Made by a program: the position numbers and the translations under genes. From Gammaproteobacteria bacterium (GTDB lineage Bacteria; Pseudomonadota; Gammaproteobacteria; Steroidobacterales; Rariloculaceae): DNA of 64,000 nucleotides. Below the pieces are notes generated by a model, which was given only the letters and a program-made list of their open reading frames with translations, was not told the DNA's origin and did no database searches. Positions 34,304 through 49,791 of this stretch are shown here, piece by piece. Each line of letters opens with the position of its first letter. Within the stretch, counting starts at the first letter, position 1. The stretch lies in assembly GCA_036507635.1 (NCBI GenBank), contig DATCIQ010000327.1, forward strand, positions 19,008 to 83,007. The letters run 5' to 3'.

Positions 34304-35259
34304 GCTGCGGCGTCCTCGTGCTTATTCTCGACCAAGCGGATGAACAGCTCCTCGAGACGATTGGTCTTGGTACGCATGCTGACCACGTCGATGGCCATGG
34401 CGTCGAGCTCGGCGAACAGCCGGTTGAGCCCCTGATTCTTGGCGACCTCGACTTCGATCTCGTGCTCGTTGCGCAGCCTGACCGTGTAGCCATGGAGCAC
34501 GGGCGCCTCCGCAACTCGGTCGCACAAGCTCAGCACGAACACCTCGCGCTGCAGCTTTCTGACGACGTTCGCCATCGTGTCGTTCTCGATGATTCGCCCC
34601 TCGTCGATGATGCCGATGTTGCGGCACAAGCTTTCCGCCTCCTCGAGATAGTGCGTAGTCAGTATGATCGTGACGCCTGCCGCGTTGATCTCCCGCATGA
34701 GATCCCACATGGAGCGGCGGATCTCGATATCCACGCCCGCTGTCGGCTCGTCGAGGATCAAAAGTCTCGGCTCATGAACGAGCGCCCGCGCAATCATGAG
34801 GCGGCGCTTCATGCCGCCGGAGAGCGTGCGCGCGATGTCGTCACGCCGGTCCCACAGATGCAGGGCCCGCAAATACTTCTCGGCGCGCTCCTTCGCCACG
34901 CGGGGCGGGATGCCGTAATAACCCGCTTGATTGACGAGCGTGTCGAAGTTGCGCTCGAACATGTTGAGGTTGACTTCCTGCGGCACGACGCCGATGCACG
35001 CCTTGACCGCTTCGCGGCGCCTGTCGAGATCGTGGCCGAAAACCTCGACCGTGCCGCTCGTCTTATTGACGAGCGAGGTCATGATGCCGATCACGGTCGT
35101 CTTGCCGGCGCCGTTAGGCCCGAGCAACGCGTAGAAGTCGCCTTCCTTGACGGTGAGGTCGATGCCTTTGAGGGCGGCCGTGCCGTTGCGGTAGACCTTG
35201 TGCAGGTCCCTGATGTTCAGTGCATCCATGTCGCGCGCGTGGGCCATACGGTCCGTCAA
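34300..35259 (-). CDS. ABC exporter ATP-binding protein (YadG-like)
   Basis: Walker A GPNGAGKTT, signature LSGGMKRR and Walker B LILDEPTAG. The exact start is uncertain, with several in-frame ATGs within the first 11 codons. Confidence 0.9.
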   Translation of the reverse strand: MTDRMAHARDMDALNIRDLHKVYRNGTAALKGIDLTVKEGDFYALLGPNGAGKTTVIGIMTSLVNKTSGTVEVFGHDLDRRREAVKACIGVVPQEVNLNMFERNFDTLVNQAGYYGIPPRVAKERAEKYLRALHLWDRRDDIARTLSGGMKRRLMIARALVHEPRLLILDEPTAGVDIEIRRSMWDLMREINAAGVTIILTTHYLEEAESLCRNIGIIDEGRIIENDTMANVVRKLQREVFVLSLCDRVAEAPVLHGYTVRLRNEHEIEVEVAKNQGLNRLFAELDAMAIDVVSMRTKTNRLEELFIRLVENKHEDAAA

Positions 35260-35295
35260 CGGCGCGTATTCTACGCCCCGTTACCCCCGAAGAGA

Positions 35296-35883
35296 TCAGG
35301 CCGAGGTTTGCTGCCCGAGCGCGTGCGGCAACGGGATCGGCGTCTGGAGCCGCGGTTGCAGGCCGATTAGCAGCAGTTGGCGGCGCGACTCCGGCCGCGT
35401 TTCGGTCAACAATTTCTGCCAAAGCCGTACGGAGTCCGGGAAAGCGCAGGTCACGAGCTGTCCGGACGCGGACAGGCGCGGCAGATCGGACAGCGTCGTC
35501 GCGCGCAAGGCGCGGAGATCTTGTTCCTCGAGGCCGAGAAACAGCCGGGCTGCGTATGGGCTGTGCCGGCTCATGCTCCAGGCGCTGTGCAGAATCGTCA
35601 GCTGCAACGCCTGCCGCGACGGATGGCCCCCGGAGCGCACATCGGGATCCATGACGCGCAGCGATCTCGCGGACGAGAGGCACAGTTGAAACAAAGCTCG
35701 CGGGAAGGCGGCGAGCATCTCGAGGCAAGCCGGTGGCGCCGCGGAGAGCAGCACGACGGCGGCCCGCCCGAGGCCGAGGCATTCCTCCCCGACGCGAGCT
35801 CGCGTTTGTAAGGAATCGAGAAACAAACGATTGAGCGCGCGGATTTCTTCGACGTGGTCAGTGCTCGCGAGGAATGGAGGCAT
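35296..35883 (-). CDS. Protein with two tandem FlhD-like helical domains (putative fused FlhD pseudo-dimer)
   Basis: 195 aa. Residues about 115-150, RLFLGLEEQDLRALRATTLSDLPRLSASGQLVTCAF, align by eye with E. coli FlhD [37 protein letters not shown]. A weaker first copy sits at about residues 11-68 (IRALNRLFLDSLQ...LGLGRAAVVLLSAAPPACLEMLAAFPRALFQLCL). The gene is divergent from an FlhC-like gene. Confidence 0.5.
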   Translation of the reverse strand: MPPFLASTDHVEEIRALNRLFLDSLQTRARVGEECLGLGRAAVVLLSAAPPACLEMLAAFPRALFQLCLSSARSLRVMDPDVRSGGHPSRQALQLTILHSAWSMSRHSPYAARLFLGLEEQDLRALRATTLSDLPRLSASGQLVTCAFPDSVRLWQKLLTETRPESRRQLLLIGLQPRLQTPIPLPHALGQQTSA

Positions 35884-46156: not shown

Positions 46157-46362
46157 GGTACCGCACCAACGCTCGCGGGACACGCTCGCGCTCGTCTGCC
46201 GCCGCGTTGAGCCTCGCGGTCGCGGCCGGACTCCTGCTCGTGTCGGGCTGCGGCCAGACAGGTCCGCTGACGCAGAGGGAGTCCGCGTCGGCGCCCCCGC
46301 CCGGCGCCGAGCCCGACGCGGACGACGCGGAAAACCGAGACGCACGGGAAGATGAGCGCTAA
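46153..46362 (+). CDS. Small lipoprotein, LptM/YifL-like
   Basis: 69 aa. The lipobox with conserved following motif, LLVSGCGQTGPL, resembles the GCGxKGPL of YifL-type lipopeptides. The tail is acidic and Pro-rich. The start overlaps the argH stop (ATGA) and the end overlaps the polA start. Confidence 0.55.
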   Translation: MRYRTNARGTRSRSSAAALSLAVAAGLLLVSGCGQTGPLTQRESASAPPPGAEPDADDAENRDAREDER

Positions 46363-49039
46363 GCCGCTCGTCCTCGTCGACGGGTCGTCGTACCTGTATC
46401 GCGCCTTTCACGTACCGAACCTGCAAAAGCTCAGCAACTCCGCCGGAACCCCGACGGGCGCCGTGCATGGGATTCTCAACATGGTCAACCGGCTCCTGAC
46501 CGACTTCGATCCGGAGCGAATTGCCGTGGTATTCGACGCGCCCGGAAAGACGTTTCGCGACGACCTCTACTCCGACTACAAGGCGAACCGCCCTGCCATG
46601 CCGGACGAGCTGCGAGTGCAGATCGAACCCTCCGTCGAGGCCATCGAAGCGTTAGGAATCCCCGTGCTCAGGATCCCCGGTGTCGAGGCCGATGACGTCA
46701 TCGGCACGCTCGCCGCCGAGGCGTGCACACGCGGCTTCAAGACGATCATCTCAACGACCGACAAAGACATGACCCAGCTCGTGAACGAGAAGGTCGAGCT
46801 GCTCAATACCATGGACGACCGGAGCTTGGATACCGATGGCGTGCGCGCGAGATACGGTGTCGGGCCGGAACAGATGGTCGACTTTCTCACGCTCGTCGGC
46901 GACAGCTCGGACAACATTCCGGGAATTCCCGGCGTCGGCCCGAAAACGGCGGCTAAGTGGCTCACCGAATACGGAACGCTCGATAACTTGCTGCTGCATG
47001 CCGGGGAAATCGGCGGCAAAGTCGGCGAAAGCCTGCGCGCGACCGTTCCGGATCTCCCGCTCTACAAAGTTCTCGTGACGATCAAGCGCGACGTCGAGCT
47101 GCCCATCGATCTCGGCGATTTGACGCGCAAGAGCACCGACGAGAATCGCTTGCGTGCCGTGCTCGAGCCTCTCGAGATGTACTCGTTCCTACGGCGGCAT
47201 GCGGCGCGGCCGCCCTCGCAAAAGGAGATCTCGCGCAATTACGAGACCGTGCTGACCGAAGGCCAACTGCGCCGTTGGCTCGAGAGGATAGGGGCCGCCG
47301 AGCTCACGGCCATCGATACCGAGACGACGAGCTTGAACTACATGCAGGCGGAGCTCGTCGGTATCTCTTTGTGCGTCACGCCCGGCGATGCGGCCTACAT
47401 TCCGGTCGCCCACTCCTATCCGGGCGCGCCGGACCAATTGTCGCGCGACGTCGTGCTCGAGCGGCTCAAACCGTGGCTCGAGGACGCGGCCCGTCACAAG
47501 GTTGGCCATCATTTCAAATACGATGCGCATATATTCCGCAATTACGGCATCGTCTTGGCAGGCGTGACCCACGATTCGATGCTCGAGTCGTATGTGCTCA
47601 ATTCGACGGCCAGCCGCCACGACATGGATTCGCTCGCCGCCAAGTATCTCGACTTGCAGACGACCAAATACGAAGACGTCACCGGCAAAGGCTTGAAGCA
47701 ACTGCGCTTCGACGAGGTCGAGGTCGCGACAGCCGCGGCGTATGCGGCCGAGGACGCCGATGTCACGATGCGGCTGCACGCGCGACTTTGGCCAGAGCTC
47801 AACGCCGTACCGGAGCTCGAGCGTCTCTACAACGAGCTCGAGTGCCCGCTCGTCGAGGTGCTGCGCAAGATGGAGTACACGGGCGTTATGGTCGATGCCG
47901 CCATGCTCGCGCGACAAAGTCGCGAGCTGGCCGAGGCGATGCTCGCGGCGGAGCATGCCGCGTACAAGGCGGCGCAAGGTCCCTTCAACATAGGCTCGCC
48001 GAAACAGCTTCAGGAAGTGCTCTACGACCGGCTCGGCTTACCGATGCTCGGCAAGACGCCGAAAGGCCAGCCGTCGACGGCCGAAAACGTGCTTCAAGAG
48101 CTCGCCGAAGACTATGAGTTGCCGCGCGCAGTGCTCGAGTACCGCGCGCTCGCCAAGCTCAAGTCGACGTATACGGACAAGCTGCCGCGCGAGATCAATC
48201 CGCGCACCGGGCGAATCCACACCTCTTATCACCAAGCCGTGGCCGCGACCGGCAGATTGTCGTCGTCGGATCCCAATTTGCAAAACATCCCGATTCGTCG
48301 ACCCGAGGGACGTCGCATCCGGCAGGCTTTCATCGCGGCGCCCGGGTACCGATTGATCGCGGCAGACTACTCGCAGATCGAGCTCAGAATCATGGCGCAT
48401 TTGTCCGAAGACGCGAGTTTGCTGCAAGCATTTCGCGACGAGCTCGACATTCATCGCGCCACGGCGGCGGAGGTTTTCGGCGTCGATCATGACGCGGTCA
48501 CGGCCGACCAGAGGCGCTCGGCGAAGGCCATCAACTTCGGCCTGATCTACGGCATGTCGGCCTTCGGTCTCGCGCGCGAGCTCAAGATCGAGCGCGCCGA
48601 AGCGCAAGCTTACGTCGACCTCTATTTCCAGCGCTATCCCGGCGTCCGGAGCTTCATGGAACGCACACGGCAGCTTGCCCACGAGCAAGGCTATGTCTCG
48701 ACGGTATACGGCCGCAGGCTTTACCTGCCCGAGATCAATGCGCGCAACGCGCAGCGCCGTCAGTACGCCGAGCGCAGCGCCATCAACGCGCCCATGCAGG
48801 GCACGGCAGCCGACATCATCAAGCGCGCGATGCTCGCCGTGGATGCCTGGCTCGCACGCGAGGGAGTCGATGGGCGGCTGATCATGCAGGTGCATGACGA
48901 GCTCGTCCTCGAGATCGAAGCTTCGCAAGCGAGTGTTGCAGCGCGGGAGCTCGCCGCGATCATGGAAAGGTCGGCGGATCTCACGGTGCCGCTCAAAGTG
49001 GAGGCGGGCATCGGCGGCAATTGGGACGAGGCGCATTGA
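46352..49039 (+). CDS. polA: DNA polymerase I
   Basis: 895 aa with a 5'-nuclease domain (LVDGSSYLYRAFH), a 3'-5' exonuclease domain and a polymerase domain (DYSQIELRIMAH, QVHDELV). Confidence 0.97.
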   Translation: MSAKPLVLVDGSSYLYRAFHVPNLQKLSNSAGTPTGAVHGILNMVNRLLTDFDPERIAVVFDAPGKTFRDDLYSDYKANRPAMPDELRVQIEPSVEAIEALGIPVLRIPGVEADDVIGTLAAEACTRGFKTIISTTDKDMTQLVNEKVELLNTMDDRSLDTDGVRARYGVGPEQMVDFLTLVGDSSDNIPGIPGVGPKTAAKWLTEYGTLDNLLLHAGEIGGKVGESLRATVPDLPLYKVLVTIKRDVELPIDLGDLTRKSTDENRLRAVLEPLEMYSFLRRHAARPPSQKEISRNYETVLTEGQLRRWLERIGAAELTAIDTETTSLNYMQAELVGISLCVTPGDAAYIPVAHSYPGAPDQLSRDVVLERLKPWLEDAARHKVGHHFKYDAHIFRNYGIVLAGVTHDSMLESYVLNSTASRHDMDSLAAKYLDLQTTKYEDVTGKGLKQLRFDEVEVATAAAYAAEDADVTMRLHARLWPELNAVPELERLYNELECPLVEVLRKMEYTGVMVDAAMLARQSRELAEAMLAAEHAAYKAAQGPFNIGSPKQLQEVLYDRLGLPMLGKTPKGQPSTAENVLQELAEDYELPRAVLEYRALAKLKSTYTDKLPREINPRTGRIHTSYHQAVAATGRLSSSDPNLQNIPIRRPEGRRIRQAFIAAPGYRLIAADYSQIELRIMAHLSEDASLLQAFRDELDIHRATAAEVFGVDHDAVTADQRRSAKAINFGLIYGMSAFGLARELKIERAEAQAYVDLYFQRYPGVRSFMERTRQLAHEQGYVSTVYGRRLYLPEINARNAQRRQYAERSAINAPMQGTAADIIKRAMLAVDAWLAREGVDGRLIMQVHDELVLEIEASQASVAARELAAIMERSADLTVPLKVEAGIGGNWDEAH

Positions 49040-49043
49040 ATCC

Positions 49044-49071
49044 GGAACTTTTCCGCCGGAAGGCCGCCTAA
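49044..49071 (+). promoter_or_regulatory. Candidate sigma-E/AlgU-type promoter
   Basis: GGAACTT (49044-49050), then N16, then CCTAA (49067-49071). Compare the consensus GGAACTT-N16-TCnAA. It starts 5 nt after the polA stop. Confidence 0.35.
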
Positions 49072-49077
49072 TGCGTC

Positions 49078-49199
49078 AGGTGCCCAGTGATTGGGCACCC
49101 CCGCTATTCCTCCCTGAAGCGGGATGGATCCCGGTTACCCCGCCGGGATTCGCCTGCCCCGGGCGCGTCCCCTAAACCCGCGCCCGGGGTTTCTTTTTT
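49078..49199 (+). ncRNA. Candidate small RNA in the polA-engB spacer (Spot 42/ErsA position)
   Basis: Four consecutive perfect hairpins are present. The first is GGTGCCCA/TGGGCACC (49079-49099). The second is CCCGCT/AGCGGG (49100-49123), with the loop ATTCCTCCCTGA. The third is ATCCCGG/CCGGGAT (49128-49149). The fourth is an 11-bp GC stem followed by a T-run (49157-49199). No ORF is present. The 5' end is inferred from the candidate promoter. Confidence 0.45.
49157..49199 (+). terminator. Rho-independent terminator
   Basis: The stem is CCCCGGGCGCG paired with CGCGCCCGGGG, with an 11-nt loop, followed by TTTCTTTTTT. Confidence 0.8.
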
Positions 49200-49209
49200 C
49201 GCGCACGCT

Positions 49210-49791
49210 TCACGTCGGCTGTAATTGCAGCCAAGCTTCGACGCGCCCCCGCGCTTCGGCGACGCCTTGCTTCGTCAGTGCCGAGAACGCGACGCACTCG
49301 AGACCCGCGAGATCGCGCTCGATGTGCCGTTGGCACGCGGTGGCCGCGCTTCGGCCGAGCTTGTCGATCTTGGTCAACAGCAACAGAATTGGAATGTCGA
49401 GTGCCTGCGCGAACGCGATCATCGCCGCATCGAGATCCCCGGGGCCGCGGCGGATGTCGATCGTGATGACGAGGCCCGCGAGCGACTCCCGCCTGCGAAA
49501 ATAGTCTTCGATGAGGCTTTGCCAATGTCGTTGCGCCGCCCGCGGTGCGCGGGCAAACCCGTAACCCGGCAGATCGACAAGACGCCGGCCCGCGGCCACC
49601 TCAAAAAAATTGATGAGCTGTGTGCGCCCCGGAGTCTTGCTGACACGCGCAAGCTTGAGTCTGCCTGCGATGCAATTGACGGCTGTCGATTTACCCGAAT
49701 TCGAGCGCCCGCTGAATGCGACCTCGAAATCCTCGTCGCGCGGAAAATCGCCGTAGTGCGCTGCGCTCTTGAGGAAAACCGGGGCAAACAC
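49210..49791 (-). CDS. engB: Ribosome biogenesis GTPase EngB/YihA
   Basis: G1 is GRSNSGKST, followed by DLPGYG and TKIDK. Confidence 0.92.
   Translation of the reverse strand: MFAPVFLKSAAHYGDFPRDEDFEVAFSGRSNSGKSTAVNCIAGRLKLARVSKTPGRTQLINFFEVAAGRRLVDLPGYGFARAPRAAQRHWQSLIEDYFRRRESLAGLVITIDIRRGPGDLDAAMIAFAQALDIPILLLLTKIDKLGRSAATACQRHIERDLAGLECVAFSALTKQGVAEARGRVEAWLQLQPT

Follow-up and report, generated by a model that had tools for sequence, protein, structure and literature searches.

Introduction

The anti-hemB motif of Betaproteobacteria was described as a probably non-coding RNA with a terminator at its end, and its strand was left undecided (Weinberg 2007, PMC1950547). Its form in Burkholderia cenocepacia J2315, ncS04, is a 105-nt RNA encoded between BCAL0264 and BCAL0265 in the orientation <- -> <-, for which a transcription start site (TSS) was mapped, a Northern signal obtained and co-purification with Hfq observed (PMC4603805, PMC5688073). 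Here we report on the spacer between polA and engB in a stretch of 64,000 nucleotides (hereafter the window, to which all positions refer) of contig DATCIQ010000327.1 from a gammaproteobacterium. This spacer holds a genuine, conserved small RNA (sRNA) gene, for which we infer a function below; its RNA belongs to the known anti-hemB/ncS04 family (also "Burkholderia RNA 7"), as a polA-linked member from Gammaproteobacteria that scores slightly below threshold, and is not a novel RNA.

Several other sRNAs are of interest for comparison. Repression by sX13 of Xanthomonadaceae needs both its three apical C-rich loops and G-rich motifs at the ribosome-binding site (RBS) of the target mRNAs (PMC3771888), a paper in which structurally similar sRNAs of S. 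aureus and H. pylori are also mentioned. ErsA (SPA0122) of P. aeruginosa adjoins PA5492/engB, a context reported to be conserved with that of E. coli spf, the Spot 42 gene (PMC3349714); its expression depends on the envelope-stress sigma factor sigma-22/AlgU (PMC13613067), and the part that pairs with its targets is a 5' region (nt 26-56) that is U-rich and unstructured (PMC5819304). The spf gene is, according to a citation in PMC3771888, repressed by cAMP-CRP.

Results

Membership of the anti-hemB/ncS04 family

The Rfam model of anti-hemB (RF02837) matches positions 49098-49197 over its full length (model positions 1-81) with 46.5 bits (E 6e-10). This match is visible only in E-value mode, and at gathering scores no Rfam family is found in the whole 64 kb (no tRNA, rRNA or riboswitch). 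The signature hairpin of the family, a stem CCCGC/GCGGG with a loop containing CCUCCCUG, is present at 49100-49123, and behind it lie a second hairpin and a terminator with a U-tail, both supported by covariation. Nine other gammaproteobacterial copies of the same architecture score 39.5-52.3 bits with RF02837 and betaproteobacterial copies 57-84 bits. Since the gammaproteobacterial scores straddle the gathering score, the window is typical of the gammaproteobacterial branch, and the threshold cuts through this branch. The genomic context given for RF02837, upstream of and antisense to hemB, does not occur here: polA lies upstream and hemB is absent from the 64 kb.

To delineate the family, one genome per species was scanned for the pattern of the signature hairpin (H2; Table 1), by which at least 120 loci were matched. 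Fourteen of 120 matches (Streptomyces, Clostridia, archaea and others) lacked the architecture and were excluded by eye as chance. The full architecture was present in about 106 loci; this and all further counts of family members are among the matches listed. On the betaproteobacterial side these belong to Burkholderiales, Rhodocyclales, Methylophilaceae, Gallionellaceae and Hydrogenophilales, and in the Gammaproteobacteria to Steroidobacteraceae, Ectothiorhodospiraceae, Immundisolibacter, Rudaea and metagenome-assembled genomes. An engB gene convergent with the RNA and then a cytochrome c4 gene follow in 65 of the 106 loci. In Betaproteobacteria the RNA is preceded by a divergent hemB, with no polA present (the order <-hemB, RNA->, <-engB was checked in Paraburkholderia, locus L076), so that it must be transcribed on its own. 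A co-directional polA lies upstream in 13-15 gammaproteobacterial loci, none of which has an adjacent hemB, and the link to hemB is therefore a betaproteobacterial one and not a feature of the RNA. A covariance model (R1), built from a MAFFT alignment (A1) of 98 members, hits the window once, at 49071-49198 (54.4 bits, E 2e-13), and gives exactly one match per related 8-kb locus.

The window RNA thus has in common with the described anti-hemB/ncS04 RNAs the hairpin CCCGC-N-CCUCCCUG-N-GCGGG, the second hairpin and U-tailed terminator that follow it, the convergent engB and subsequent cytochrome c4 gene, a sigma-E-type motif at equal distance and a 5' hairpin (H1) that lies outside the Rfam model. 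It differs from them in an H2 loop of 12 instead of 11 nt, in the C-rich loops of H3 and the terminator (ACCCC and UCCCC), and in a same-strand polA instead of a divergent hemB as upstream gene.

A further set of loci was found by the EngB protein and not by the RNA pattern. The nearest EngB relatives have 88%, 83%, 66% and 63% identity, and their loci show the order polA -> spacer <- engB. In those at 88%, 66% and 63% the promoter is retained together with the four hairpins and the three C-rich loops; the contig at 83% (L126) ends inside the RNA and holds only its 3' half. R1 scores these relatives with 46-54 bits. Within the lineage, H1 forms a compensatory series (GGTGCCCA/TGGGCACC, GGTGTC/GACACC and GGCGTCCG/CGGATGCC), and in L127 the H2 stem has changed in a compensatory way to CCCGCG/CGCGGG around a loop kept as UCCUCCCU (DNA CAUCCUCCCUUUGA). 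L127 and L129 retain CACCCCA in the H3 loop, and the lineage retains UCCCCyAAA in the terminator loop. The covariation of the hairpins in relatives that the first-pass annotation of the window had called for is thus found, also in loci that were reached through a protein.

Structure, covariation and strand

That annotation had described GGAACTT-N16-CCTAA, three hairpins and a terminator on the polA strand of the 170-bp spacer, a description confirmed by the sequence and by RNAfold, which recovers all four hairpins (minimum free energy (MFE) -85 kcal/mol). The fold z-score of the + strand is -5.37, with 0 of 200 shuffles folding as well, and that of the opposite strand -2.37. In the DNA the terminator stem is followed by TTTCTTTTTT, to 49199. 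The H2 pattern has a single occurrence in the window against 0.00 expected, and its loop sequence is predicted to sit in the loop of a hairpin for 97 of 100 members; a C-rich terminator loop is present in 42 of 100 and a C-rich H3 loop in 11 of 100, the latter being a gammaproteobacterial trait. The most conserved bases of the RNA sit in its loops. The C-rich motif of the terminator loop reads ACUCCCCUUU in many Betaproteobacteria and UCCCCUAAA in the lineage of the window (49168-49178; approximately columns 127-147 of A1).

The structure was scored on A1, an alignment blind to structure, with the four helices drawn by hand. Paired cells amounted to 83.7% against 76.3% in shuffles and 38-57% in slid controls, and the covariation score of 0.277 (0.161 in shuffles) was equalled by none of 500 shuffles. 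RNAalifold, run independently on A1, recovered H1 with double compensatory changes in all six modelled pairs; on this MAFFT alignment it mis-drew H2 and missed H3 and the terminator. We attribute this failure to the ragged loops, and the structure was therefore supplied by hand and the members re-aligned with covariance models. In the latter alignments, which lean towards the modelled structure, 95% of cells are paired for all members and 94% for the gammaproteobacterial members only, with double changes in 19 and 18 of 25 pairs, respectively. For H3 and the terminator these amount to 5/5 and 6/6 (+2/2) pairs in all members and to 5/5 and 4/6 (+2/2) in the gammaproteobacterial ones.

In the family alignment, GU/UG pairs (122) exceed AC/CA pairs (25), which indicates that the transcribed strand is the polA strand; the U-tract and the promoter are likewise found on the + strand only.

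Promoter and transcription start

The pair GGAACTT/TCnnA is a hallmark of RpoE/AlgU-type extracytoplasmic function (ECF) sigma factors. GGAACTT-N15-17-NCTAA occurs once in the 64 kb, where 0.02 occurrences are expected. The family was scored for GGAACTT-N15-17-TCnnA in the 70 nt upstream of H1 at a threshold of at least 8 of 10, with 2120 random windows drawn from the same loci as controls: 66 of 105 loci reached this score against 34 control windows (1.6%). Split by context, the motif is present in 38 of 42 hemB/engB loci, 14 of 15 polA/engB loci and 5 of 7 other engB-linked loci, i.e., ahead of 57 of 64 engB-linked copies and at a fixed distance, the end of the -10 element lying 6-8 nt before H1 across the scored loci; copies without the engB link have it in 2 of 23 cases. 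When 105 nt, the length of ncS04, are counted back from the Paraburkholderia L076 terminator, the TSS falls 7 nt past TCATA, the same spacing as in the window. In the lineage of the window the -35 element GGAACTT is unchanged and the -10 element is kept as C/A-CTAA, while the sequence of the 16 nt between them is free, which argues for selection on the promoter. The sigma-E-like promoter proposed in the first-pass annotation is thus borne out as a motif conserved in position and sequence, and an RpoE/AlgU-type sigma factor would be expected to recognize it.

The engB-less copies are of a Comamonadaceae type (among them L001, L008, L010, L017, L018, L032, L033, L037, L038, L041, L073, L079, L081 and L103), in which the divergent hemB is kept and a sigma-70 promoter, TTGAAA-N17-TAAATT, is found instead; they are a clear case of promoter rewiring inside one sRNA family. 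A weak hairpin, UCCGG...CCGGA at 49041-49060, directly follows the polA stop and overlaps the -35 element in the MFE fold; its conservation in L124, L127 and L129 is not obvious.

The polA-engB locus

The spacer, as read from the sequence, comprises 49040-49209 (170 bp) and begins after the polA stop codon TGA (49037-49039). Beyond engB lie a gene for a dihaem cytochrome c and a DsbA-like gene. Only 10 nt separate the terminator tail from the engB stop, and the RNA stops short of the engB coding sequence. The sequence between polA and the RNA contains no terminator, so that read-through from polA would also end at the terminator of the RNA. The spacer had been described as free of open reading frames (ORFs); this does not hold literally, as several mechanical ORFs, typical of GC-rich DNA, span it. 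A coding function is nevertheless unsupported, because the loop insertions and deletions among relatives are not multiples of three. The exact EngB protein of the window was found only in the ENA metagenome assemblies ERZ27254795, ERZ27254860 and ERZ27254867.

Table 1. Features of the polA-engB locus in the window; L numbers denote related loci.
Feature	Position	Strand	Remarks
polA (DNA polymerase I)	46352-49039	+	NCBIfam NF004397, 1182 bits; upstream of and co-directional with the RNA
-35 element GGAACTT, sigma-E (RpoE/AlgU, ECF) type	49044-49050	+	from sequence; invariant in L124, L127 and L129
-10 element CCTAA	49067-49071	+	16 nt past the -35 element; family consensus TCnnA, lineage of the window C/A-CTAA
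Predicted transcription start	49078 (+/-1 nt)	+	inferred; 6-7 nt beyond the -10 element
Hairpin H1	49079-49099	+	8 perfect pairs, GGTGCCCA/TGGGCACC, loop GUGAU; sequence variable, structure conserved
Hairpin H2, family signature	49100-49123	+	stem CCCGCU/AGCGGG (6 bp), 12-nt loop AUUCCUCCCUGA exposing CCUCCC
Hairpin H3	49126-49151	+	core 49128-49149 of 7 perfect pairs, extended by wobbles; C-rich loop UUACCCCG
Rho-independent terminator	49156-49199	+	GC stem of 11-12 bp (49156-49190), C-rich loop UCCCCUAAACC, tail UUUCUUUUUU
engB/yihA (YihA/YsxC, ribosome-biogenesis GTPase)	49210-49791	-	TIGR03598, 200 bits; convergent with the RNA

Comparison with sX13, ErsA, Spot 42 and other C-rich sRNAs

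The sX13 model (Rfam RF02232) matches the window end to end but weakly, with 24.4 bits (E 0.004 in a 151-nt search), far below its gathering score of 50, and L064 and L042 with 27 bits. In the reverse direction, R1 scores 18-22 bits in 13 of 14 sX13 loci, and R2, a model made from gammaproteobacterial members only, 23-30 bits in 13 of 14 (rough E 3e-7 to 3e-5), neither model matching anything else. Like the window RNA, sX13 (~115 nt) is encoded directly downstream of polA on the same strand and consists of three stem-loops, of which the third is the terminator, each with a C-rich motif at its apex; the loops, CCUCCC, ACCCC and UCCCC in the window, align as AUCCCCUGG (sX13) to UCCUCCCUGA (window), UCCCCAAG to UUACCCCG for the second loop, and CUCCCC to GUCCCC. 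An H1-like 5' hairpin is likewise present in the genomic sequence of sX13. Differences are the H2 stem, which is unrelated in sequence, the lack of a downstream engB and a promoter region that is not clearly of the sigma-E type. Of the 87 metagenomic sX13 loci, 79 extend far enough upstream; in all of these, sX13 lies ~130 nt past a polA of the same direction, and no engB is present. A promoter of the sigma-E type is not supported for sX13, where the AAC of the -35 element is not conserved.

The upstream hairpin of the sX13 loci (L130-L216) is perfect, ACAGGCG-CAA-CGCCTGT, and lies ~25-45 nt upstream of the pattern match, e.g., in L130. It spans the published 5' end of the 115-nt species, the Rfam model begins within it, and its counterpart is H1 of anti-hemB. 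A -10-like element, TCTATA/TATAAC, precedes it by 7-8 nt. Hairpin and -10-like element together suggest that the primary transcript may exceed 115 nt, and the 115-nt species may be a processed form.

Distant homology between the window RNA family and sX13 seems plausible to us, with the balance tipping slightly in its favor, because the matches are reciprocal, the score rises with the nearer clade, and position and architecture are common to both. It is unproven because C-rich loops and a terminator can also converge.

For ErsA and Spot 42, of which the window RNA had been proposed to be a positional and possibly functional analogue, the scan with covariance models that was suggested at the time gives no significant match to the window. 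The ErsA model (ErsA/Pseudomon-1, RF01719) gives 16.4 bits (E 0.3-0.8) against a gathering score of 50, so that homology of the window RNA to ErsA, as judged by the Rfam model, is not supported. With ErsA, whose spacer in Pseudomonas we take to be specifically that between polA and engB, the window RNA has the locus beside engB in common, and sigma-22/AlgU control fits the sequence motif of the putative promoter. It differs from ErsA in being almost fully structured: in the fold there is no U-rich unstructured stretch between 49078 and 49156. The 3' half of the ErsA consensus consists of a hairpin with loop CCCCgCCCUAGC and a terminator with loop CcCCCUCCCCAUA, both C-rich, and one gammaproteobacterial family member (L003:2777-2850, - strand) aligns to this half with 26 bits (221-nt search, E 0.002). 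It is possible that ErsA and the anti-hemB family have this 3' half in common.

Spot 42 (RF00021) has no Rfam match in the window even at E <= 10, and R1 gives E. coli spf (L217:3405-3509) a non-significant 13 bits, the next match in the 6-kb polA-yihA region reaching 9 bits with filters off; homology to Spot 42 was therefore rejected. The gene is AU-rich, has single-stranded seeds and encodes SpfP; with these seeds, its AU-richness and its repression by CRP it differs from the window RNA, and the likeness is positional only. This positional likeness is close: in the annotation of E. coli K-12, polA (4046966-4049752, +) is followed by spf (4049899-4050009, +) and yihA (-), i.e., position and orientation are identical, the size is similar and the terminator U-tailed. 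The claim that the spacer occupies the Spot 42/ErsA position and strand is thus correct, ErsA being located beside PA5492/engB (PMC3349714). Of the proposed analogy, the positional part stands, and the functional part, induction by envelope stress, is suggested by the promoter motif only.

Other sRNAs with C-rich loops or anti-Shine-Dalgarno motifs are RF02278 (= ncS03/05/27, a toxic sRNA of Betaproteobacteria), the alpha-proteobacterial ar14, and alpha-r7 at polA. The window gives weak covariance-model cross-matches to ar14 (27 bits) and RF02278 (18 bits), driven by the loop motif and the terminator. The ar14/RF02278-type sRNAs also have CCUCC(C) in hairpin loops and are presumed to pair with Shine-Dalgarno (SD) or G-rich sequences, but they are separate families with other loci and with a different number and spacing of motifs.

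Discussion

Taken together, we consider it probable that 49078-49199 on the + strand encodes a trans-acting sRNA of ~120 nt, the gammaproteobacterial form of anti-hemB/ncS04, which has a sigma-E-type promoter and pairs through its C-rich loops. Transcription would start near 49078 when an RpoE/AlgU-type envelope-stress sigma factor is active and would stop at the intrinsic terminator, which would also end read-through from polA. At its 3' end, 16S rRNA carries the anti-Shine-Dalgarno sequence, whose core is CCUCC. The exposed loops CCUCCC (H2), ACCCC (H3) and UCCCC (terminator) would pair with G-rich or SD sequences of target mRNAs and so block the initiation of translation, a loop-to-RBS mechanism proposed by analogy with sX13. 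The H2 loop is presumed to be the main seed, and the C-rich motif of the terminator loop may be a second one. The terminator with its U-tail probably binds Hfq, as suggested by this tail and by the binding of ncS04 to Hfq.

The absence of a terminator behind the co-directional polA raises the question of whether the RNA has a promoter of its own. It could be an sRNA derived from the 3' untranslated region (UTR), processed mainly from the polA mRNA, while the sigma-E-like motif has little or no activity in this lineage. Many sRNAs arise in both ways, and the -10 element CCTAA departs from TCnnA; however, a -35 element that is invariant and a -10 element kept as C/A-CTAA at 63-88% EngB identity, on either side of a free 16-nt spacer, are hard to reconcile with a promoter without function, and we regard this origin as unlikely. 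Less probable still is that the structures represent no more than the 3' UTR and terminator of polA, without an independent RNA and with a fortuitous GGAACTT-N16-CCTAA. The gene does run straight into the element, and the terminator is a good intrinsic one, yet at least 42 betaproteobacterial loci have the same RNA and the same promoter motif at the same distance with a divergent hemB and no polA, the lineage conserves this motif, of which chance would give 0.02 copies per window, H1-H3 covary, which is needless for a terminator, and the homologue ncS04 has its own TSS (PMC4603805). The earlier view that the spacer holds an sRNA gene and more than a polA terminator is upheld by the covarying family, by the loci with a divergent hemB and by the TSS, Northern signal and Hfq binding of ncS04 (PMC5688073, PMC4603805).

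A cis-acting role, as antisense or 5'-UTR element for a neighboring gene, has also to be considered, either in the sense of the original hemB motif and anti-hemB idea or as antisense to the 3' end of engB. Weinberg 2007 (PMC1950547) left the strand undecided, a preprint from 2026 puts forward antisense control of hemB (10.64898/2026.09.01.748597), and the RNA is convergent with engB, its tail ending 10 nt from the engB stop. With no hemB in the window, the control proposed in the preprint cannot apply here, and cis control of hemB at this locus was rejected; nor is hemB found beside any polA-linked member. Pair counts (GU against AC), U-tract and promoter all indicate the + strand, the RNA leaves the engB coding sequence free, and it is the loop bases that are most conserved, as expected of a trans-acting seed, so that a cis role seems highly improbable. 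That the hairpins are a REP-like or other repeated or mobile palindromic element, as tandem GC-rich perfect hairpins in an intergenic spacer might suggest, has a negligible chance, with a single match in 64 kb and one per related 8-kb locus (the genome-wide recurrence named earlier as a counter-indication is not seen), a fixed engB synteny, conserved loops and covarying stems.

Several points weigh against the trans-acting, sigma-E-driven sRNA that we favor. The organism is an uncultured gammaproteobacterium represented by metagenome assemblies only, and its RNA is known solely as predicted from DNA. The RF02837 match lies 3 bits below the curated gathering score of 49.5, and as the H2 pattern served to collect the loci, the invariance of H2 is in part circular. 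With no terminator between polA and the RNA, some or all of the latter could come from polA read-through and processing. The -10 element of the window reads CCTAA, where the family consensus is TCnnA; none of the stresses tried on ncS04, osmotic stress and low pH among them, induced it (PMC5688073), and the sigma-E-type promoter of B. cenocepacia ncS04 overlaps a good sigma-70 extended -10 element, TGGTATATC, so that sigma-E control across the whole RNA family is to be read as a prediction from promoter motifs. As to Hfq, it is bound by ncS04 and not needed by sX13, which acts independently of it (PMC3771888). Finally, the search for target sites in the window yielded nothing convincing; complements of the H2 loop occur there at chance rate. 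The only complement with one mismatch, UCGGGGAGGAAU at 35781-35792 (- strand), abuts the ATG of an ORF at 35114-35782 (- strand); it is probably not a target, because the number of matches is at chance and an SD-start spacer is lacking.

The comparisons above also allow a tentative evolutionary scenario, which we hold to be possible although somewhat less than evenly likely. Anti-hemB/ncS04, sX13 and probably ErsA might descend from one ancient sRNA gene, with the window RNA and its gammaproteobacterial relatives as missing intermediates, and conceivably the Spot 42 locus might belong here as well. The ancestor would have been driven by sigma-E, looped with C-rich motifs and located beside engB/polA, and this slot would have been kept through the history of the Beta- and Gammaproteobacteria while seed and promoter were rewired by lineage.

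Every testable part of the earlier reading of this spacer has held, and our results support it as right in substance. An unannotated spacer can now confidently be called an sRNA gene, one which standard Rfam annotation misses by 3 bits. With respect to the literature searched, it is new that the anti-hemB RNA is tied to engB and not to hemB and reaches well into the Gammaproteobacteria, where it occupies the Spot 42/ErsA slot; that its engB-linked copies almost always have an ECF sigma-E-type promoter, which leads to an envelope-stress sRNA hypothesis for a widespread family; and that position, architecture and loop motifs of the copies in Gammaproteobacteria are similar to those of Xanthomonas sX13. 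If this is true, studies of Burkholderia, Bordetella and environmental Beta- and Gammaproteobacteria could build on what has been learned from sX13 and ErsA about virulence, biofilm and Hfq control, and the polA-engB spacer would be a good model for an sRNA gene evolving in place.

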